Source: a virus (Duplodnaviria; Heunggongvirae; Uroviricota; Caudoviricetes). From it: a stretch of 8,455 nt of DNA. Both the position numbers and the translations under genes were made by a program. The stretch lies in IMG/VR virus record IMGVR_UViG_2617270953_000002; one strand, 5' to 3'. Shown here piece by piece: positions 1 through 8,455 of this stretch; position 1 is the stretch's first letter; each line of letters starts with the position of its first letter. The notes beneath the pieces are model-generated. The model was not told the origin of the DNA and made no database searches. It saw only the letters and a list, made by a program, of their open reading frames with translations.

Positions 1-329
1 CGCTGTGGCGGCGTAAGAGGCCCCGGAACGTTATCGTTCACACGGACCGTGGAGGCCAGTACTGTTCAGCAGATTATCAGGCGCAACTGAAGCGGCATAA
101 TCTGCGTGGAAGTATGAGCGCAAAAGGTTGCTGCTACGATAATGCCTGCGTGGAAAGCTTCTTTCATTCGCTGAAAGTGGAATGTATCCATGGAGAACAC
201 TTTATCAGCCGGGAAATAATGCGGGCAACGGTGTTTAATTATATCGAATGTGATTACAATCGGTGGCGGCGGCACAGTTGGTGTGGCGGCCTCAGTCCGG
301 AACAATTTGAAAACAAGAACCTCGCTTAG
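1..329 (+). CDS. IS3-family transposase OrfB (DDE catalytic subunit), C-terminal fragment; 5' end lies outside the window
   Basis: Reading from nt 3 gives ...[54 protein letters not shown]...YNRWRRHS...[11 protein letters not shown], ending at TAG 327-329. The HTDRGxQY, CxDNA..ESFF..LK and YNR.RRHS motifs are the typical C-terminus of IS3-family DDE transposases; the tail resembles IS600. Recognised from memory. Confidence 0.85.
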
Positions 330-359
330 GCCTGTGTCCATATTACGTGGGTAGGATCA
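330..359. repeat. IS right terminal inverted repeat (IRR), ends with CA at nt 359
   Basis: Sequence gcctgtgtccatattacgtgggtaggatca directly follows the transposase stop and has the TG...CA termini and TGGACAC core typical of IS3-group IRs. The exact boundary is inferred, not confirmed against the left end. Confidence 0.6.
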
Positions 360-1551
360 TATGGCCCATAATCTGCGCAACAATACCTGTTGGTACTTCG
401 ACCCATTCAGCGAGGGTCCCAAAACTACGGCGCAATCCGTGCAAGCTGATATGTGGTAACTCCGCGCGAGTTAATGCTCTATTATGTGCTGAACGCGGTT
501 CAATAATTTTGCCACTTTTGCTGTTACTTCTGAAAACCCAATTCTCCTCGTTTGTACCACGATTGGGGATCTCCATCAGTGAGCGTAACAAGTCAGAAAC
601 ATAGGGAGTGAGGGGGATAATTCGCTCGCCTTCGATCTTGTCTTTAATTCTCATGCTTGACCATTTGAAATCTATGTCAGACCAGCGAAGTGAGGAAATT
701 TCTTCACGCCGTGCACCGGTGAGCAAAAGCACTTGGAGATAGGCTGATGCAATGGGATTATTGAGGCTACGCACGGCACTGAACCAGCTTTTGAGCTGTT
801 CTTTTTGTAAGCAATCTCCCGCTTTGCTCGCTGATATTGGAACCATTTTTCTCACGTTATGATCTTGTGCAAGATCGCCATCGATTATTCCCTGATATTT
901 TTTCTGGTAATTAGCCCATTTGATGAATGCACGCAACAGACGGTAGGCATGAGCAGTGACGGTAGGCCGATTTTGTCTCTCTGTACTTAGCCATTCGGCA
1001 ATGTTCTCTGGTGTTAGTTCTGATAATGGTCGGTCGAGCAGGCTAGCCAGTGGCCCAGGTGAGGTTGGGCCCCGGCCTCTTTTTTTACTTTCGCCTCCAC
1101 GACTGGACAAGTTAACGTGATCGGCAATGTAGCGTGCAGAGTAGGGGCGTTTAGTTTTTGCGCTGATTCCGGTTCTCAATTCATCAAGATAATCTTCCCA
1201 AGCGCTTGAAAAGGTTGCCTTCGTTTTACGAGATTCAGCCTGCTGTGATTCCGCTTCAGCAATTTTTTCCGCCTTAGCTATACGCGGATCTATCCCAGTA
1301 TCGATTAATGTTTGCAGTCGCCTGGCTTCGGCCCTCGCATCATCAATCCTCCAATCGTTAATGTTGCCAATGGTCATGCGAAGGGTTTTTCCCGCATACA
1401 GGCTTTGGAATACAAAGGCTTTTGCTCCACGAGTTGCTCGACATGCCAAGCTTGTTACGTCCGTATCCCAAAGGAAAACTTGGTTTTTCCCTTCAGGTAA
1501 AGTAAATCTTCGAATTCGTTCGAAGGTTAGTTTTTGTCTTGAAAGCGCCAT
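343..1551 (-). pseudogene. int: Tyrosine recombinase (phage/island integrase), C-terminally truncated by the IS; the last five codons and stop come from IS sequence
   Basis: 402-aa ORF with ATG at 1551 and AGGAA about 9 nt upstream. It has box I (LLLTGARREEISSLRWSDID) and box II (LHGLRRSFGTLAEW...AQIMGH), but the ORF stops 5 codons after the GH, with the junction at nt 359/360 inside the Met codon. The catalytic Tyr expected about 10 residues later is absent. Confidence 0.75.
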
Positions 1552-1734
1552 TTTTAGGGTTCCTGTTGGGGATTACGGTTTACAGTAATGTAACGGCTGG
1601 TGTAAGTAAATTGAAAGGATAAACATCAACACTCATCAATTTACATCAACAGGTTTTTTGTTTTAATATTATGATTTAAAATGATAAATTTGTGATTTCT
1701 GATGGTTGTTCAAGCAGTTAAAATATAAAAACTT

Positions 1735-1783
1735 CGCATTCGTAATGCGAAGGTCGTAGGTTCGACTCCTATTATCGGCACCA
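1735..1783 (+). other. 3' fragment (about 49 nt) of tRNA-Thr(CGU), thrW-like: anticodon arm, variable loop, T-arm, acceptor 3' strand and CCA. An att core/direct repeat, not a complete tRNA gene
   Basis: cgcattcgtaatgcgaaggtcgtaggttcgactcctattatcggcacca: anticodon loop TTCGTAA (anticodon CGT), T-stem GTAGG/CCTAT, T-loop TTCGACT, acceptor TATCGGC + A + CCA. The preceding bases (aaaatataaaaactt) carry no D-arm or 5' acceptor strand. The 5' boundary is approximate (1733-1737). Confidence 0.8.
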
Positions 1784-1797
1784 TTTAAATCAATAAG

Positions 1798-2958
1798 TTA
1801 CCTCGCATTTAAGTAAACTACGTTCTCCTCTTGTGCCGTATTTGTGCCATTGCGATTTATAATCGCATCGATTTTGCTCGCGTGCTCGGTGAGATGCCCG
1901 GCTGAAAGGTGGGCGTATCTTTGAACCATTTCGAGAGTTTCCCATCCTCCCATCTCTTTAAGCGCAAGAAGAGAGACACCGGACTGAACCAGCCAGCTTG
2001 CCCAGGTATGCCTCAGGTCATGGAAGCGGAAGTTGCTAATGCCTGCCCGCTTTAACGCTCCCTTCCATGCCTTGTTGCTGTCGGTTCTCATCTTCCTTAC
2101 CGCTGCTGTTTTTGTTCCGTCGCTTCGGTAGGCAGGTTTGGTGTGGACAAATACCCATCTCTTATGGAGCCCCTGCTGTTTTCTTAATATCTGGCATGCG
2201 GTTTCGTTAAGAGGAACTCCGATCGCATTGCCAGCTTTTGTTTCATCAGGGTGCATCCATGCCATTTTCTTATCCAGATCGACCTGTGACCACTCAAGGT
2301 CTGTAACGTTGGAACGGCGAAGGCCTGTCGTGATTGCAAACATGACCACAGGGAAGAAATGAGGAGCAATTTCTGCAAACAGGCGCTTCGATTCCTCCTC
2401 TGTAAGCCATCTGATTCGTCCATTCTTAACGCGTGGTGTTGATATTTTGGGCGTCCTGTCAAGCCATCCCCATTCAACAGCCATATTGAGAATAGCGCGA
2501 AGTATTGCCAGATGCCGCGTCTTCGTTCCTTTGCTTGCCAGCTTTGGTTTATACTCCGGCACTGGCTTGCCAAGCCGCAAACACCTGTCCCGGCTCATCT
2601 CCCAGTTCAGGCGATGGCGGCGGTTTTCCATCCCGTCTACCGCCTCCATTATTTTTTCTGTTGTTATGTCAGAGAGAATGGTTTCTCTGAAGTGCAACAT
2701 CCAGAACGATATAATGCTCTTGTCATCATCAATGGACTTCTTATCCGATTTCTCACGCAGCCACCGTATGCAGGCTTCCTTGAATAGCTTTTTCGGTGAT
2801 TCCCCGAGATTTTTTACTCTCCACGCTTCTGCTTTCAGACGATCGTGAAGTTCTTGCGCTTGCCTTTTGTCCGATGTTTCAAGAGAGCGTCTAACTCTTG
2901 ATCCATCTGGCGCGACGAAATCACAGTGCCACGTGCCACCGCGTAGTTTGATTGACAT
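1798..2958 (-). CDS. int: P22-type lambdoid tyrosine integrase, apparently intact
   Basis: 386-aa ORF with ATG at 2958 and AGGAGG 8 nt upstream. N-terminus MSIKLRGGTWHCDF...SDKRQAQELHDRLKAEAWRV and C-terminus FRFHDLRHTWASWLVQSGV...EMGGWETLEMVQRYAHL closely match the phage P22 Int pattern (recalled from memory). The stop lies 14 nt from the tRNA-Thr fragment, as expected for int next to attL. Confidence 0.9.
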   Translation of the reverse strand: MSIKLRGGTWHCDFVAPDGSRVRRSLETSDKRQAQELHDRLKAEAWRVKNLGESPKKLFKEACIRWLREKSDKKSIDDDKSIISFWMLHFRETILSDITTEKIMEAVDGMENRRHRLNWEMSRDRCLRLGKPVPEYKPKLASKGTKTRHLAILRAILNMAVEWGWLDRTPKISTPRVKNGRIRWLTEEESKRLFAEIAPHFFPVVMFAITTGLRRSNVTDLEWSQVDLDKKMAWMHPDETKAGNAIGVPLNETACQILRKQQGLHKRWVFVHTKPAYRSDGTKTAAVRKMRTDSNKAWKGALKRAGISNFRFHDLRHTWASWLVQSGVSLLALKEMGGWETLEMVQRYAHLSAGHLTEHASKIDAIINRNGTNTAQEENVVYLNAR

Positions 2959-3182
2959 GCTTTAACCTCCTGCACATCAACCGCATTCACCGCGCTATTG
3001 TGTCTCACAGACTTAAGCGCCGCAATGCAGTCTGACTTGCAAATGCGATATGGACTTTTAGGTTTATCTGGATTTATCTTTGCGGCCTGAAGTCGTCCAC
3101 TTCGTATCCACTGCGTGATAGTGCCTTTGTCTACCTTCAGATACGATGCTGCCTCTTCACGAGTGAAGATTTCTTCTTCCAC
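2835..3182 (-). CDS. xis: Excisionase (Xis/AlpA-type HTH DNA-binding protein), 115 aa, GTG start
   Basis: N-terminal IFTREEAASYLKVDKGTITQWIRSGRLQAAKI is a typical excisionase helix-turn-helix. It sits immediately upstream of int and overlaps it by 124 nt in another frame. GTG at 3182 is preceded by GGAGA. The length is consistent with P22 Xis being unusually long (about 116 aa, from memory). Confidence 0.65.
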   Translation of the reverse strand: MEEEIFTREEAASYLKVDKGTITQWIRSGRLQAAKINPDKPKSPYRICKSDCIAALKSVRHNSAVNAVDVQEVKACQSNYAVARGTVISSRQMDQELDALLKHRTKGKRKNFTIV

Positions 3183-3267
3183 TTGGAATCTCCATTTATT
3201 GAGTTGGTATTATTGCGGTAGGTCTGGATATCTTGAGAAATGAACAGGCCTCATCGAGTGTGAGGCG

Positions 3268-3612
3268 TTAGTCCTTGCGTAGCTCGCTGATTCTTCTGTA
3301 AGTCTCTGGTGCTTTGTTCCCGTACGTCTTCATTTCAGACTTCAACAGAGCAACGAGTGAATCCCATTCGTTGAGGATTCCTTTGAATGCCGGAACGCGC
3401 TTTGCAACCTTGTCGAATGAATCTCTGATTTCTGGAATCTGCTCAACAAGTGCAACGCATCGTCGGAAATCTGCTGCGTCATGTGGAGCGCCGAAGTGAT
3501 GACCATAGATATTCTTTTTCAGTCCACATGCGATTGAGGCAATAGTTGCGCTACTGATGCCGACATCGCCAGTCGATTGCCATTTCAAAACCTTCATAGC
3601 CAAATCTGACAT
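3268..3612 (-). CDS. Hypothetical prophage accessory protein, 114 aa
   Basis: ORF-track ORF 3268..3639 trimmed to the internal ATG at 3612, which is preceded by GGAGA with about 7 nt spacing. The longer N-terminal extension would run through the terminator hairpin. No family recognised. Confidence 0.6.
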   Translation of the reverse strand: MSDLAMKVLKWQSTGDVGISSATIASIACGLKKNIYGHHFGAPHDAADFRRCVALVEQIPEIRDSFDKVAKRVPAFKGILNEWDSLVALLKSEMKTYGNKAPETYRRISELRKD

Positions 3613-3623
3613 TTCTTGTCTCC

Positions 3624-3648
3624 AATAAAAAACCGCCATCAGGCGGCT
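3624..3648 (-). terminator. Putative intrinsic (rho-independent) terminator on the minus strand
   Basis: Minus strand reads AGCCGCC-tgat-GGCGGTT followed by TTTTTTTATT: a 5-7 bp GC stem, 4-nt loop and U-run, 65-90 nt downstream of the stop of the 3713..3892 gene. The stem is short, so strength is uncertain. Confidence 0.45.
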
Positions 3649-3712
3649 TGGTGTTCTTTCAGTTCTTCAATTCGAATATTGGTTACATTGTTTTCATATA
3701 TGAATAAATAAA

Positions 3713-3892
3713 TTAGCTTTTTTCGTTGCCTTCGCTTTCTTTATTAATTTTGACAAACTCGTTTTTACCACGCTCTCCAAATGCGTCTTTAGAGTCGTTG
3801 TATCCGCAATCGCAGCACACATAATCATCAGACCATCCACGCATTGTTTTTTCTTTTGCAATATTTCCAGAACCGCATTTTGGACAAGACAT
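3713..3892 (-). CDS. Small zinc-ribbon protein (CPxCG ... CCDCG), 59 aa, moron-like
   Basis: ORF 3713..3925 trimmed to the ATG at 3892, which is preceded by GGAGGT about 8 nt upstream. Product MSCPKCGSGN...YVCCDCGYND has two Cys pairs spaced for a zinc ribbon. The locus is strongly AT-rich. Confidence 0.6.
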   Translation of the reverse strand: MSCPKCGSGNIAKEKTMRGWSDDYVCCDCGYNDSKDAFGERGKNEFVKINKESEGNEKS

Positions 3893-3988
3893 ATCACTAC
3901 CTCCAAAGCATGAGTGAGATGACAACGTAACATTGATTGGAGATTAACAATAGATTGCTGATGTAAAAGATATGTATAAGCTTCGCTT

Positions 3989-4627
3989 TCAAAGTGGAGG
4001 CTCTGGTAGCGGCATCCAGTGTGACGGCTCACATACCCCCTCAACACCATTCATGTAAAAGAATTGAAATAACCCATTACCTTTGTGAAACCCTACCATC
4101 TGCTCTTTAGTGTCTGAGCAATAAACCAAAACATCTTCTTCGTTTGGCATTCGATCACTACAGCTTATCCAACCATCAGGAGTTACCGGAGAGTTGCCAC
4201 CGGGAATATTTTCCGGAATATTTTGTTGTGCGTTTTGTGGTTGTTCGGATTTACCCTGAAGCATGGCGGCGCGGCAGGCGTTCCAGCCAGCTGTTCGCCC
4301 AAGCGCGTAAACTTCAGATGGCTCAAGATAATCAATGTCATGCCCATCCTCATCGTCGTTCTCAGGTAATGCAGCAGGTACTACCGGTACTGGCGGAGCG
4401 GCGTAGACTTCAATAATCCCATTATCAATAGGCCATTCCCCATCCTTGATGTAGTCACTTGTGCCGTCAACTTGCTGTTCTGCAATGTGGAATGCGCCAA
4501 TAGGCTCTGCTTCCAGCGATGCCAGTGCGATTTCATAAGCCCGACGCTCAATATTGTCTCGGACGTCCAGGCTGCCTATACGCTCTTTGATTTCTTTAAT
4601 CAGTTCTTTGTCGGTGAACGTTGTCAT
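3989..4627 (-). CDS. DUF551-domain prophage protein with an N-terminal helical domain and Pro-rich/acidic linker, 212 aa
   Basis: ATG at 4627 with AAGGA about 8 nt upstream. The C-terminal segment PDGWISCSDRMPNEEDVLVYC...GVCEPSHWMPLPEPP matches the DUF551 signature common in lambdoid 'ea' regions (from memory). The central linker is AAPPVPVVPAALPENDDEDGHDIDY. Confidence 0.75.
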   Translation of the reverse strand: MTTFTDKELIKEIKERIGSLDVRDNIERRAYEIALASLEAEPIGAFHIAEQQVDGTSDYIKDGEWPIDNGIIEVYAAPPVPVVPAALPENDDEDGHDIDYLEPSEVYALGRTAGWNACRAAMLQGKSEQPQNAQQNIPENIPGGNSPVTPDGWISCSDRMPNEEDVLVYCSDTKEQMVGFHKGNGLFQFFYMNGVEGVCEPSHWMPLPEPPL

Positions 4628-4637
4628 GTGTTAGTCC

Positions 4638-4901
4638 TTATCCTGCTGTGCTTTCAACTGATGAGGGGAATAAAATCTTTTCATCAAATCCGGCATTCAT
4701 ATCATGGACAGCAACACACCAATCCACCGACGAACGATTATCAAGAGCCTCCATGATTTCATCCATGCGGCGTAGGTCATAAAGGTAAATGCTTTTATCG
4801 CCAATGGTGTAAAAACCAATTTTTTTCGGTGATGGACAGCGATCAAGAACGTCCTGTAATTCGCTCAACCATGCTTGTTCTTTTTTTGTCAAAGTTGCCA
4901 T
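4638..4901 (-). CDS. Hypothetical prophage protein, 87 aa
   Basis: ATG at 4901 preceded by AAAGGAGA 6-7 nt upstream; the start lies 1 nt after the TGA of the upstream gene. No family recognised. Confidence 0.65.
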   Translation of the reverse strand: MATLTKKEQAWLSELQDVLDRCPSPKKIGFYTIGDKSIYLYDLRRMDEIMEALDNRSSVDWCVAVHDMNAGFDEKILFPSSVESTAG

Positions 4902-4902
4902 A

Positions 4903-5394
4903 TCACTCTCCTTTGATGCGAATGCCAGTGGTACTCATTCTCCTGATTTCCCAGAGCACACGAGGAACACCACCGTTTCCGACCGGATCGCGCTTACTCC
5001 GCATGGCGACGCTTGATTCCGCCCAGCTTTTTCTTGGAGGAAGCTCTTTCACACGAACAAAACCAGCTGCGCGAAGAGATGCTCCTGATTCATCTGCCTG
5101 GGTGTACGTAATACAACGTTGATAACCCATAGCCTTTGCTGCCCGCCAGACAGCACCATAAAGCGCGCTGTTAGCGTTGCGTTCTCCTGTGGTACATGTG
5201 CGATTTACTTCAAGCGTTAATCCATCGTCCAAATGTCGTGCAACAGGTCGACCAGCTGTCGCCACACCTATCAATTCTCCGGCATTATTTCTCAGACCAA
5301 TGCTGAATTTATGCCCCACTGGTGGTTTATTGTGTCGGTGGTGCTGTGCGATAAATTCCTGCGCCGCTTTCAGCGTTATAGGTGAAATGACCAT
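4903..5394 (-). CDS. Conserved prophage protein, 163 aa; possibly an acyl-CoA N-acyltransferase (GNAT-like) fold, assignment unverified
   Basis: ATG at 5394 overlaps the TGA of the upstream gene (TGATG), with AAGGAGGAG about 9 nt upstream. The ORF-track GTG at 5397 is one codon further upstream. Sequence shows HHRHNKPPVGHKF...LIGVATAGRPVARHLDDGLTLEVNRT...SALYGAVWRAAKAMGYQRCITYTQADESGASLRAAGF. The fold call is pattern intuition only. Confidence 0.7.
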   Translation of the reverse strand: MVISPITLKAAQEFIAQHHRHNKPPVGHKFSIGLRNNAGELIGVATAGRPVARHLDDGLTLEVNRTCTTGERNANSALYGAVWRAAKAMGYQRCITYTQADESGASLRAAGFVRVKELPPRKSWAESSVAMRSKRDPVGNGGVPRVLWEIRRMSTTGIRIKGE

Positions 5395-5873
5395 CACTCA
5401 GACTCCTCCTTGATGCCAGCGGCGCGGGAATCATTCCATCGCTTTACTTCTTCACTAATTACGTCAATGCATTCTTTCGAATCCATTAGGTAATCTTCAT
5501 CAAAAAGACGTTCCTGTTCGTTTTCTATCGCAACAATGATTGCTTCAACTAATTTTTGTGCCTGAGAATCACTTTCTAACTCTGCAATGCGCTTACTCCC
5601 ATCCGAGATAACACCTTCGTAATACTCACGCTGCTCGTTGAGTTTTGATTTTGTCTCCTCAAGCTCAACACGCAGCTTCCCTACCGTTAGCGCAATATCC
5701 TCGTTCTCCTGGTCGCGGCGTTTGATGTATTGCTGGTTTCTTTCCCGTTCATCCAGTAGTGCCAGCACAACCTGAGGTGTGACCTTCATACGAAATGCCA
5801 GCAATTTTTGTGGTGTGGCTGCTATTTTTATTGCTTCTGCCGCATCACGCAGTGCCTGATAGTCAATTGTCAT
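5394..5873 (-). CDS. Ead/Ea22-like early protein (coiled-coil), 159 aa
   Basis: N-terminus [22 protein letters not shown] matches the Ead/Ea22-like family start found in P22/lambda-type early regions (from memory); the centre is a charged coiled-coil-like segment. ATG at 5873 overlaps the upstream TGA (ATGA), with GAAGGA about 8 nt upstream. The ORF track starts 3 codons earlier. Confidence 0.7.
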   Translation of the reverse strand: MTIDYQALRDAAEAIKIAATPQKLLAFRMKVTPQVVLALLDERERNQQYIKRRDQENEDIALTVGKLRVELEETKSKLNEQREYYEGVISDGSKRIAELESDSQAQKLVEAIIVAIENEQERLFDEDYLMDSKECIDVISEEVKRWNDSRAAGIKEESE

Positions 5874-6514
5874 TCTCGCCATCCTTCACAGTTGTAATCA
5901 CTACAGCCTTCAAAATCATATGGGCTGTACTGCCAGGAGATTTTTCCGCAATGCGGACAATTCCAACGCACCTTCCCGCTTCGCGACTTCTTTCTTCTGT
6001 TCTGCTCTTTCAACCAGTCAGGCATGACCAAACCTGCGCCCTGAACCATTGTTCTGCGGTTAAAGTTATTGATATTGAACGTCCTGCGCTTTGCTGCATC
6101 AGCAATGGAAAATGGCAACCAAACTATTCCTGGTTCGTTTTTGTTGGCGACGCTAAAGATGGTCGCTTTACTGAAGTCATCTGTTGGCAATCCACCGTGT
6201 TGAAGCCAGTAAACATCGTTGCCGTTCCAGCTACCTTTTTTGTAGGCCACATACGCAGTGCAATCTGACTCAATCAGGCTTTCTGTAGGGATGTACTGGC
6301 AATCAACGTGCCACACTGCCATTGCATCCACGCTATCAGCGCAAACAGGCTGATCGATATCTCGCCCACAATTCCAGGCTTTTTGGGCTTCTTCCAGCGT
6401 GTAAACATGAGCGCGATCGATATCAGAACTGTAACCATTGCCGTTATGGCAATGGAATGAAGCGTTATTGCCCACAGTTTCACGCGAGCACATCATGTAA
6501 AAACGGTTAGTCAC
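5870..6514 (-). CDS. Hypothetical Cys/His-rich prophage protein, 214 aa, with a C-terminal zinc-ribbon-like motif
   Basis: Probable GTG start at 6514 overlapping the upstream TGA (GTGA), with strong AAGGAGG 6 nt upstream. The ORF-track start at 6535 is also GTG but lacks an SD. N-terminal [10 protein letters not shown]; C-terminal [11 protein letters not shown]...CSDYNCEGW. No family recognised. Confidence 0.7.
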
Positions 6515-6678
6515 TGGCTGCCTCCTTTGCGCCACATCGCATTCAGATATTTGTTTTCATTCACTGATGGAAAAGAATTTCTCTTAAGTAATTCCTCTCT
6601 CGATGGCATTGGCTTTACGCGTTGGCGAATAATCATTTCTGCCGGAAGAATGCCGGGATTGTATGCAAGTCCTCTCAT
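6511..6678 (-). CDS. Small hypothetical protein, 55 aa, translationally coupled to neighbours
   Basis: ATG at 6678 preceded by GAGGAA (about 7 nt spacing) which overlaps the TGA of the 6689..6982 gene. Its own TGA overlaps the GTG of the next gene. The ORF-track version (105 aa) has an N-terminal extension overlapping the upstream gene. Confidence 0.5.
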
Positions 6679-6688
6679 GGTAAATTCC

Positions 6689-6982
6689 TCAGTCATTACT
6701 GATAGCGCCATAACGTGAGCGGTAATTACGCAGGCGCGGGTCAATTTCAGGGAAGTGGGTATATGTGGCTTTGCGGAATGGTCGGATTGATGTCTGGTAA
6801 ATTCGCTCGCGTTCTTCTTTCTCTGCAAGCCATATACAGTGGCGAAATTCCTTTTCCTCTTTCGTTTCCTGCGGTAGAGACATTATCCGGTCGTAGTTTT
6901 TTCTGAATTTATCCAGCACCTCCGATACGGAATTGCCGGAACAGCGGCGCACGTCGTCCGCACCATACAGAGGCGCTGGCAT
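6689..6982 (-). CDS. Hypothetical prophage protein, 97 aa
   Basis: ATG at 6982 with AAGGA about 9 nt upstream, 23 nt after the SSB stop. No family recognised. Confidence 0.65.
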
Positions 6983-7005
6983 AATTAAATCCTTATTGTT
7001 CTAAA

Positions 7006-7389
7006 TCAGAATGGGATGGAATCGTCGTATACAGGAGTGTTCTGCTGGTTACTACTTTGCCGCTGCGGGCCATTTCCTGAAGCTGCAAATCCAATCTTTG
7101 CATTCAGTAATTCAAGAGTGATTGATTGACCATTTTGCCCCTGATAAACATCAACCCTGATGTTTTCTCCGGTAATTTCCACAATTCCACCTTCAACAAG
7201 AACACTACGGTAGTAATCCGCTTGCGCTCCCGGCTTGGCAAATACAACGGCGCTGTAGTTTATCCATTCTTTCTTTTTTGTCTGGCGATCGTAATACTGA
7301 ACGCCAGCACGGATGTTGAATCCGATATTTTCCCCGGCCTGAAACTCTCTTGCGGGCTTGTTTAGTCTTACAGTAATCGAATGTGCCAT
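7006..7389 (-). CDS. ssb: Phage single-stranded DNA-binding protein (compact OB fold with acidic SSB-type C-terminal tip), 127 aa
   Basis: ATG at 7387-7389 overlaps the erf TAA (TAATG). The C-terminus ...NTPVYDDSIPF matches the conserved DDDIPF tip of bacterial SSB. The body (ITVRL...EWINYSAVVFAK...VLVEGGIVEITGENIRVDVYQGQNGQSITLELLNAKI) resembles OB-fold strands. The ORF track's 30-aa N-terminal extension would overlap erf. Confidence 0.7.
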   Translation of the reverse strand: MAHSITVRLNKPAREFQAGENIGFNIRAGVQYYDRQTKKKEWINYSAVVFAKPGAQADYYRSVLVEGGIVEITGENIRVDVYQGQNGQSITLELLNAKIGFAASGNGPQRQSSNQQNTPVYDDSIPF

Positions 7390-7994
7390 TAAGCAGCCGC
7401 TCCTTCTAATTCGTCTCGTCTGATGTTGTAAACGTCCTGCGCTTTGTGCTGCTCCGGTGTGCCTTCGAGCATCTTCCACGCTTTGGCGAACGCCTGTTTA
7501 AGCTCTTCCACGGTGTTTTTCTGCATTGCTGCGTCAGTGAATGCTTTTAGAACCTGTTCAGGTGTAGGTGATGGTTTTGATTGCTTTGCTGCTGCGTTCT
7601 GCTGATGTTTATGCTCGTCTGTATCTGCATCTTTCGCATCATCAATGCCGAACAAACCATTAAGGCAATACTTGCGCGCATAAGAGCTTGTAGCTCCAGT
7701 AACTTGTGCAGAATCCATTCCTTTCTTGCTTTCTTCCTCTCTTGCGAGAGCGGTTGCCGTATGACTGTTTTCGCCATCGGTAATAGTTGCCGTGGCTTTC
7801 ACGTAATACCGATCACCAATCAACACAACTTCATCGCTGATTGATAAAAACAGGCCATTCAGTAACGGCTTAACGCCTTCAAGAATGTCTTCGCAGCTTC
7901 TGTATTTATATTTACCGAATGAGTTGTACTGATTCTTTGGCGCGTTCAGATTCTCCTGAATAGCTGCCAGTCTTGCATAAAATTCTTTGCTCAT
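7389..7994 (-). CDS. erf: Erf-family single-strand annealing recombinase (essential recombination function), 201 aa
   Basis: From the ATG at 7994 the product begins MSKEFYARLAAIQENLNAPKNQYNSFGKYKYRSCEDILEGVKPLL...GDRYYVKATATITDGENSH...GATSSYARKYCLNGLFGIDDAKDA, matching phage P22 Erf through the N-terminal annealing domain (from memory). The C-terminal third seems divergent. Confidence 0.9.
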   Translation of the reverse strand: MSKEFYARLAAIQENLNAPKNQYNSFGKYKYRSCEDILEGVKPLLNGLFLSISDEVVLIGDRYYVKATATITDGENSHTATALAREEESKKGMDSAQVTGATSSYARKYCLNGLFGIDDAKDADTDEHKHQQNAAAKQSKPSPTPEQVLKAFTDAAMQKNTVEELKQAFAKAWKMLEGTPEQHKAQDVYNIRRDELEGAAA

Positions 7995-8095
7995 ATGATT
8001 GTTCTCAGAATGGACACGGCCCAAGGAAATAACGCTGATTTAATACTTCTACTCGGGACAAATTAAGGCATACCCGCATTCCTTCGCGGTCGCCA

Positions 8096-8254
8096 TTATG
8101 GCGATACCAGAGAGCTTTCTGCGTGTACATGCGTCTCTGTAACTTGCTCTCCTTCACTGTGGTTGCAAGTGACATGAATATCTCCTTCGTTACCGATTAA
8201 ATCTTTCATCTGACGAATGAATTCTTCGTCTGACCAGTTATCTGTAAAACTCAT
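8096..8254 (-). CDS. Small acidic/His-containing hypothetical protein, 52 aa, in the position occupied by kil in P22/lambda
   Basis: ATG at 8254 overlaps the TGA of the cIII-like gene (ATGA). Product MSFTDNWSDEEFIRQMKDLIGNEGDIHVTCNHSEGEQVTETHVHAESSLVSP. The functional call is positional only. Confidence 0.5.
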   Translation of the reverse strand: MSFTDNWSDEEFIRQMKDLIGNEGDIHVTCNHSEGEQVTETHVHAESSLVSP

Positions 8255-8421
8255 GGGCGGCCTTGTTGTTTCAAAATATCCCAAAGCTTTTCGAGCAAAC
8301 TTTTCATTCTTGGTTGTTTAAAGTCTGCTCCGGTTAGAATGTTTTTTCGTGAATGCTGTACCGATAAAATCGGGTTGAAAGGGCGAACCGATGCCGCCCC
8401 TGCAATAGCGAACTGTTGCAT
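8251..8421 (-). CDS. cIII: cIII-like small regulatory protein (candidate FtsH inhibitor), 56 aa; below the ORF-track size cutoff
   Basis: Hand translation of the minus strand gives ATG (8421) to TGA (8251): MQQFAIAGAASVRPFNPILSVQHSRKNILTGADFKQPRMKSLLEKLWDILKQQGRP, with strong GAAGGAG about 7 nt upstream. N-terminal MQ.FAIAG and C-terminal LL..L.DIL.Q.G.P resemble lambda CIII (MQYAIAG...RLIDILNQPGVP, from memory). The position upstream of kil/erf fits lambdoid order. Confidence 0.55.
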   Translation of the reverse strand: MQQFAIAGAASVRPFNPILSVQHSRKNILTGADFKQPRMKSLLEKLWDILKQQGRP

Positions 8422-8455
8422 AGGATGCTCCTTCTGTTTGATTGCATAACGAAAA

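Follow-up and report, generated by a model that had tools for sequence, protein, structure and literature searches.

The tRNA-Thr gene thrW is a recognised hotspot for genomic islands (PMC7545054), and several described systems at this locus resemble the DNA considered here. In E. coli K-12, the right end of the cryptic prophage CP4-6 carries the integrase gene intF beside the tRNA fragment ptwF, which duplicates the 3′ end of thrW, an orientation that Panis et al. classed as a rare divergent ('OD') integrase–tRNA arrangement (PMC2951348). The K-12 PintF fragment, extending from −145 to +71 relative to the ATG, is repressed ∼23-fold by IntF, a negative autoregulation (PMC2951348). A group of lambdoid phages (SfX, HK75, HK446, HK542, mEp213, mEp043, mEpX2 and ECP1) also uses thrW, and in several of the phage records the 46–48 nt that recur in the window are labelled attP, 'type CP4-6, similar to thrW and ptwF'. 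Phage P22 has the same target tRNA in Salmonella. Finally, experiments on Shigella flexneri have demonstrated that SfX and SfI can integrate in tandem at thrW, where an att core is located between arms of different elements (Sun et al. 2011, PMC3306764).

The window analyzed in this study is the entire 8,455-nt draft contig JNQE01000008.1 (GCA_000704105.1; assembly L008), presented as its reverse complement. One end of the contig lies in IS3, and the other lies in mosaic phage DNA. Positions 1552–1800 very probably constitute a hybrid att junction between two tandem elements at the thrW hotspot of E. coli (or Shigella), in which the int-side arm of an island is followed by a shared core and then by the int-side arm of a phage. 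The features of the window are as follows.

1–359, plus strand: right end of IS3, comprising the C-terminal part of the transposase and then the terminal inverted repeat, which ends ...GTAGGATCA at 359.
360–1551, minus strand: IntF (CP4-6)-type tyrosine integrase, truncated by IS3, with 89% amino acid identity to K-12 IntF residues 26–422.
1552–1734, no strand: int-side arm of the island att site with the integrase promoter region, colinear with the K-12 intF–ptwF spacer.
1586–1612, plus strand: 27-nt motif TAATGTAACGGCTGGTGTAAGTAAATT, which precedes the core by ∼152 nt on the left in all of the island copies examined.
1708–1783, plus strand: ptwF-type pseudo-tRNA-Thr, with a degenerate 5′ half (1708–1734) and then the exact 3′ 49 nt.
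1722–1752, minus strand: terminator-like 9-bp hairpin (1752 to 1732) with a U-rich tail, from a pattern scan.
1738–1783, plus strand: att core, 46 nt in common with phage attP sites.
1784–1797, no strand: 14-nt spacer, part of the phage int-side arm, with one mismatch relative to the mEp213 attP.
1798–2958, minus strand: phage tyrosine integrase of 386 amino acids, apparently intact, with 99.5% amino acid identity to HK446 Int.
2835–3182, minus strand: excisionase (HTH_17, PF12728) overlapping the start of int, annotated as excisionase in the matching mEp213, HK542 and SfX.
3268–8455, minus strand: early-left (nonessential and recombination) region of a lambdoid prophage, identified from the Pfam families of L008; the region continues past the end of the contig.

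The center of the junction is a tRNA fragment. On the plus strand, 49 of 49 nt at 1735–1783 match the 3′ end of K-12 thrW, from the anticodon arm to CCA. This is the longest thrW suffix in the whole 8,455-nt window and occurs as a single copy, and ARAGORN calls no tRNA in the window. These results uphold a claim made in an earlier note on this DNA that only the 3′ 49 nt of a thrW-like tRNA-Thr is present. Exact identity to a tRNA 3′ end is combined here with two adjoining tyrosine integrases, as at att sites that duplicate the 3′ end of a tRNA gene. Within the fragment, the 46-nt core is unchanged in all eight of the sequences aligned, so that polymorphisms do not place the crossover point more narrowly. 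The annotated P22 attP core maps to window positions 1745–1767. Copies of the 49-nt core are common in the species, with 7587 occurrences in 5017 E. coli genomes and a maximum of four in one genome.

The 27 nt immediately upstream of the 49 nt resemble a degenerate tRNA 5′ half. When the Rfam tRNA model is applied, a match of 36.3 bits spanning the full model length is obtained at 1708–1780 (gathering threshold, 29 bits). For comparison, thrW scores 71.8 bits, K-12 ptwF 45.5 bits and a third island variant 29.5 bits, whereas the mEp213 attP gives no match to the model despite its identical 46-nt core. By a hand count, 10 of the 27 nt at 1708–1734 are identical to thrW. The Rfam alignment of 1708–1780 contains two non-pairs in the acceptor stem, and our own reading of the alignment adds three G–U pairs in that stem and one mismatch in the D stem. 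A full cloverleaf in which both the acceptor stem and the D arm are paired, as is expected for a functional tRNA-Thr(CGU), was not found at these positions. Because the island arm carries this decaying tRNA-like 5′ half, the feature, as judged from its sequence, is a ptwF-type pseudo-tRNA and not a working tRNA.

To the left of the fragment, the integrase gene begins with an ATG at 1549–1551 on the minus strand. The spacer between this ATG and the fragment (1552–1734) measures 183 nt; its location agrees with the earlier note, which had counted 184 nt. A total of 397 native codons are kept, and the open frame continues into IS3 to position 343. Pfam identifies Arm-DNA-bind_3 and Phage_integrase domains in the product. 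The alignment with IntF stops at residue 422 of 466, directly after the conserved 'IMGH', such that the last 44 residues are missing. In the window the protein ends '...IMGHMILPT*', whereas the full-length alleles of ECONIH4, AW1.7 and MS6192 go on '...IMGHKPSALAEKHY...'. The boundary between IS3 and the island is at 359/360, with island homology beginning at 360. Annotated IS3 copies from thousands of E. coli genomes match positions 1–359 at 100% identity, and rve-domain open reading frames are called in the sister contigs L007 and L009. Thus, the integrase is truncated, as had been proposed, and the complete catalytic domain of the CP4-6/IntF family is lacking, with the equivalent of IntF residues 423–466 removed by IS3. 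This truncation presumably also removes the catalytic tyrosine, and the island would therefore no longer be self-mobile.

The similarity of this side to K-12 CP4-6 extends well beyond the integrase. Positions 362–1852 are colinear with the K-12 intF–ptwF region at 82.8% identity over 1491 nt, and this colinearity runs from inside intF to 69 nt past the core. The two loci share the 27-nt arm motif, the degenerate 5′ tRNA half, the 49-nt core and the divergent ('OD') orientation. On the strength of this colinearity, the left side of the window is homologous to the right end of CP4-6 rather than only similar to it, and the parallel with K-12 that the earlier note had drawn proves to be a real homology. 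The window therefore presents the family arrangement, in which the arm is homologous and the IntF-type integrase and the ptwF-type pseudo-tRNA are divergently oriented, and the tRNA fragment is a homologue of ptwF because the colinear region includes both the 27-nt motif and the degenerate 5′ half. There are also differences. The K-12 integrase is not cut by IS3, its annotated start is 25 codons upstream of the shared MALSRQK ATG, and the distance from this ATG to the core differs by small indels. In addition, the core in K-12 is followed by a 69-nt int relic and yagP, whereas the core in the window is followed by 6.7 kb of intact-looking prophage.

Since the 183-nt spacer is homologous to the autoregulated K-12 intF promoter, it corresponds to the promoter and arm region of the island. 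A pattern scan yields promoter-like sites on the minus strand in 1552–1734. The TAATGTAACGGCTGGTGTAAGTAAATT motif within this spacer recurs in the CP4-6 left arm of K-12 and ECONIH4, there 54 nt to the right of the core, and is absent from the attP regions of mEp213 and P22. Such a distribution is typical of arm-type integrase sites, and the motif is probably an arm-type binding site for IntF.

To the right of the fragment, the DNA is of phage origin. The stop codon of the second integrase is at 1798–1800, which leaves the 14 nt (1784–1797) that had been noted earlier between the core and int. Phage homology begins at 1738, within the core, and continues through int and xis at 98–99% identity to ECP1, mEp213, mEp043, HK542, HK446, mEpX2, HK75 and SfX. 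For int DNA by itself, the identity to mEp213, mEp043, HK542, mEpX2, HK75 and SfX is ∼98–99%, and across the thrW lambdoid phages int and xis are 98–99.5% identical to the window. The same 46-nt core and 14-nt spacer are found in these phages. Hence the region has the composition of a phage int/xis/attP module, with int and xis near-identical to those of isolated phages and the core located 14 nt past the int stop. What distinguishes the window is the DNA on the other side of the core: In free phage DNA, the left arm is phage DNA from the tail-fibre side, and in ordinary lysogens it is the thrW 5′ half, whereas in the window it is the island arm. The same int adjoins an annotated intact tRNA-Thr gene in many complete E. 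coli genomes (536 and others), where homology to the window starts at exactly 1735. That configuration is an ordinary attL.

The right-hand integrase had been described as P22-type and its phage as P22-like. The first part of this description holds, since the protein is 54% identical to P22 Int with the RHR-H-Y motifs aligned. P22 and the window also share the target tRNA, the 46-nt core, the convergent int–core layout and an int stop that is likewise 14 nt past the core, although the arms have diverged. The second part goes too far, because the window contains no late genes and none of the virion genes, such as portal, coat and tailspike, by which a P22-like phage would be recognised. Its closest phages are HK446, HK542, mEp213, mEp043, HK75 and SfX. 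Among the Pfam families in the early-left region are DUF551, Ead/Ea22, Abc2 (6689–6982) and Erf (7389–7994). The erf and abc2 types are shared with P22, but are mosaic modules that also occur in HK022 and the mEp phages. The best whole-phage matches are mosaic as well, with 49–55% coverage at ∼97% identity to mEp213, mEp043, HK542 and HK446, and partial early-left matches are found to HK022 and Stx phages. In mEp213, a near relative, the tail-fibre genes are annotated as HK97-like. What can be asserted from the sequence is that the right element is a lambdoid prophage with a P22-family integrase of the SfX/HK75 type.

The mechanism proposed for the formation of this junction follows the lambda/P22 paradigm. 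The left part is very probably the int-proximal end of a CP4-6-family island, with the IntF-type integrase read away from the core. The right part, from inside the shared 46-nt core, is very probably the int-proximal arm of a thrW-specific prophage of the SfX/HK75/mEp213 type. By analogy, phage Int would have recombined the attP core with a chromosomal copy of the core, and a crossover inside 1738–1783 would account for the island arm to the left of the core and the phage arm to its right. The earlier claim that two integrative elements share one thrW core thus agrees with the arms observed, which are CP4-6-homologous on the left and that of thrW lambdoid phages on the right. If this mechanism is correct, then a second copy of the core is expected at the far end of the prophage and intact thrW is expected beside proA at the far end of the island. 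Excision by phage Int and Xis should remain possible and would restore the island end.

Because the window is the whole draft contig, the far ends in its own strain are out of view, and related genomes must be used as a guide. In the complete genome of ECONIH4, proA is followed by thrW (2179906–2179981), a 44-kb island, an IntF-like gene, the core, a prophage of ∼40 kb that begins with int, a second core (2095571–2095616) and a CP4-6-like element. Thus, this analogue shows both of the features that the earlier note had called for, an intact tRNA elsewhere and a further core where the prophage ends. The comparison it had suggested with a locus lacking the prophage is provided by AW1.7, which carries the same island (98% identity). 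There, the terminal core directly adjoins the yagP′/paoD backbone, and this is the prophage-free state. In ECONIH4, AW1.7 and MS6192, the islands that have this integrase carry cargo other than that of CP4-6 (ykfI/yafW, yagK–N and others), such as sucrose-utilisation genes; for the window, the body of the island is located past IS3 and hence off the contig. The thrW site of O157:H7 has an IS-truncated integrase 14 nt after the tRNA gene.

When positions 1400–2100, which span the hybrid junction, were used as a query at a coverage of at least 80%, matches were obtained in only two of 5426 complete E. coli genomes (ECONIH4 and CAVP776), both of which have a different phage downstream from the junction. 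At the same coverage, none of the 5426 matched window positions 1–3300. The identical junction is present in three separate NCBI assemblies (L007, L008 and L009), in which the identical 402-aa IS3-truncated allele adjoins this phage. In L006, the same truncated allele adjoins a phage whose int-side arm is P22-like and whose integrase has 387 amino acids, and in L010 and L011 it adjoins the left end of CP4-6. A scan of species-representative genomes for the island-arm/core junction returned one MAG contig with yet another right-hand neighbour.

These comparisons bear on the order in which the two elements arrived. We consider it likely that the island came first and the phage later. Most probably, an island crippled by IS3 was already resident and the phage used its terminal core as a ptwF-like secondary attB. 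The reverse history, in which a phage lysogenised plain thrW first, the island next inserted at the attL of this phage, where thrW is intact, and so displaced the core and the phage to its right, and IS3 was acquired last, is the strongest competitor, although we regard it as rather unlikely. Recombination geometry implies that both orders yield an identical junction, and there is a precedent for the reverse order in the SfI–SfX tandem, in which SfI entered the attL (intact thrW) of resident SfX in a laboratory lysogen and in all 24 of 24 converted isolates (PMC3306764). That tandem, however, consists of two phages with the newcomer at attL, whereas the window joins an island and a phage at the distal core of the island. 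The same IS3-truncated allele has at least three different neighbours on its right, a fourth adjoins the same island in the MAG, and a phage-free version of the same island exists in AW1.7. Since an island hit by IS3 is unable to integrate itself, most of these right-hand neighbours must be later arrivals or have been swapped in. A dead integrase cannot place the island beside each neighbour, and therefore the island bearing the lesion was most simply the resident and its terminal core the landing site. The proposal in the earlier note that a phage integrated into a resident island is accordingly favoured by the shared truncated allele, even though the structure of the junction is equally compatible with the opposite order.

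A somewhat less likely possibility still is that the right element is a decayed remnant, a larger version of the 69-nt int relic of K-12, and that the site is a fossil. K-12 and AW1.7 have such a relic at the same position, the truncated integrase of O157:H7 offers a comparable case, and the window covers only 6.7 kb of the element. Against this, int, xis and all early-left open reading frames are open and are 95–99% identical to those of plaque-forming phages.

Another reading assigns a role to the hairpin at 1722–1752. This structure is made of the tRNA anticodon arm plus three bases of the island arm, and the stretch has a predicted minimum free energy of −10.9 kcal/mol. On the minus strand, the stop codon of the phage int precedes it by 46 nt, and the promoter of the island integrase comes after it. 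K-12 ptwF and thrW have a shorter version of the hairpin, and the mEp213 attP has none. Conceivably, the hairpin could serve as a terminator or insulator and shield the autoregulated IntF-type promoter from int–xis read-through, with the tRNA fragment exploited as a regulatory RNA, but we consider this improbable. Its loop, UUACGAA, mimics the anticodon loop of tRNA-Arg2 and could be a candidate TadA-edited 'ptwF-as' site. If the regulatory reading were true, then the arms of the CP4-6 family would have been shaped by evolution to make use of the tRNA fragment in this way.

There is very little chance that the junction is an assembly artefact in which short reads joined an island arm to a phage arm through the 49-nt repeat. 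The core is a multicopy repeat, Logan contigs with the same integrase stop inside the core at 1764, the contig of the window is itself small and has repeats at its borders, and the sister contigs all end at IS3 or within the core. Nevertheless, the repeat is shorter than a typical read length, and mis-assembly is unlikely because the junction is the same in the three NCBI assemblies and because the complete circular genomes of ECONIH4 and CAVP776 show the same layout of island arm, core and phage int. Weakest of all is the idea that 1708–1783 is a functional, complete tRNA-Thr gene, which has practically nothing left to recommend it once the full-length Rfam match above threshold is set against the far higher score of thrW, the silence of ARAGORN, the divergent 5′ half, the acceptor- and D-stem defects and the lack of a PGAP tRNA annotation at the homologous sites listed for ECONIH4, MS6192 and AW1.7.

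The arrangement described here is of a known kind at a well-described locus and, in this sense, is already known. Its significance is small beyond the correct annotation of the contig as a join between an IS3-inactivated island and a thrW prophage. Because the contig joins the two through a shared att core, positions 1708–1783 should be annotated as a ptwF-type pseudo-tRNA/att site rather than a tRNA gene. The locus is one further case in which mobile elements are stacked at the thrW hotspot, and it suggests that the terminal ptwF-like core of a dead island is still usable as a landing site for phages.

At the right end of CP4-6 in E. coli K-12, the 69 nt lying directly 3′ of ptwF, the 3′ duplicate of thrW, match the last ~18 codons and the stop codon of the SfX/mEp213-type phage int in sequence comparisons. 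This match and the other features considered here are located as follows.

Window 1784-1852; L004 (the K-12 intF-ptwF locus) 5256-5323, NC_000913.3 about 297255-297322: int-relic homology
Window 1708-1734; L004 5179-5206: degenerate tRNA 5′ half adjoining the exact 49 nt of the thrW core (Rfam tRNA model)
Window 1586-1612; L005 3002-3028; also L016 (ECONIH4 thrW region): 27-nt direct repeat TAATGTAACnGCTGGTGTAAGTAAAT
Window 1722-1752, minus strand: terminator-like 9-bp hairpin with a U-run
Window 1552-1626, minus strand: N-terminal extension of the island integrase

Strain AW1.7 carries the same int relic as K-12, and its end point is identical. Because the homology to the tail of int follows ptwF, the supposedly chromosomal flank at the right end of CP4-6 is itself the scar left by an old thrW prophage.

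The island arm also retains traces of the tRNA upstream of the core. With the Rfam tRNA model, this stretch reaches 45.5 bits in K-12, 36.3 bits in the window and 29.5 bits in VREC0864, and the model finds no match in phage attP carrying the same core. These scores suggest that a whole tRNA copy was once present in the attP of the CP4-6 family. CP4-6-type att sites carry the 27-nt repeat in each of their two arms, and it was not found in the attP regions of mEp213 or P22. It is probably an arm-type binding site for IntF.

On the minus strand, the hairpin and its U-run are built from the tRNA anticodon arm together with island bases, with the stop codon of the phage int 46 nt upstream of them. 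The hairpin loop, UUACGAA, is similar to the anticodon loop of tRNA-Arg2. An antisense "ptwF-as" TadA editing site has been listed in K-12, where Sanger validation was unsuccessful (2026; PMC13170351).

The full-length island integrases of ECONIH4, AW1.7 and MS6192 are labeled as pseudogenes with an "internal stop" by RefSeq/PGAP. This stop falls within a 25-codon N-terminal extension patterned on the K-12 intF start, and the frame is open when read from the methionine of MALSRQK. Therefore, the choice of start site may have produced the pseudogene call as an annotation artefact.

We also observed that three elements are stacked at thrW in ECONIH4 (NZ_CP026399.1, about 2.04-2.18 Mb; L016-L018).

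Element 1: 44-kb island that carries scr (sucrose) genes as well as conjugation remnants
Element 2: ~40-kb prophage that includes genes for tail sheath and baseplate
Element 3: CP4-6-like element with a heat-resistance locus (clpK, yfdX, kefB-GI)

To the right of the core, the same island integrase has several differing neighbors (contigs L006, L010, L011 and L025). Where the IS3 cut is identical, the core is followed either by a phage whose arm is P22-like or by a CP4-6 left end; in the metagenome-assembled contig (L025), unrelated sequence lies 3′ of the core. Given these varied neighbors, the island's terminal core behaves as a reusable landing pad.
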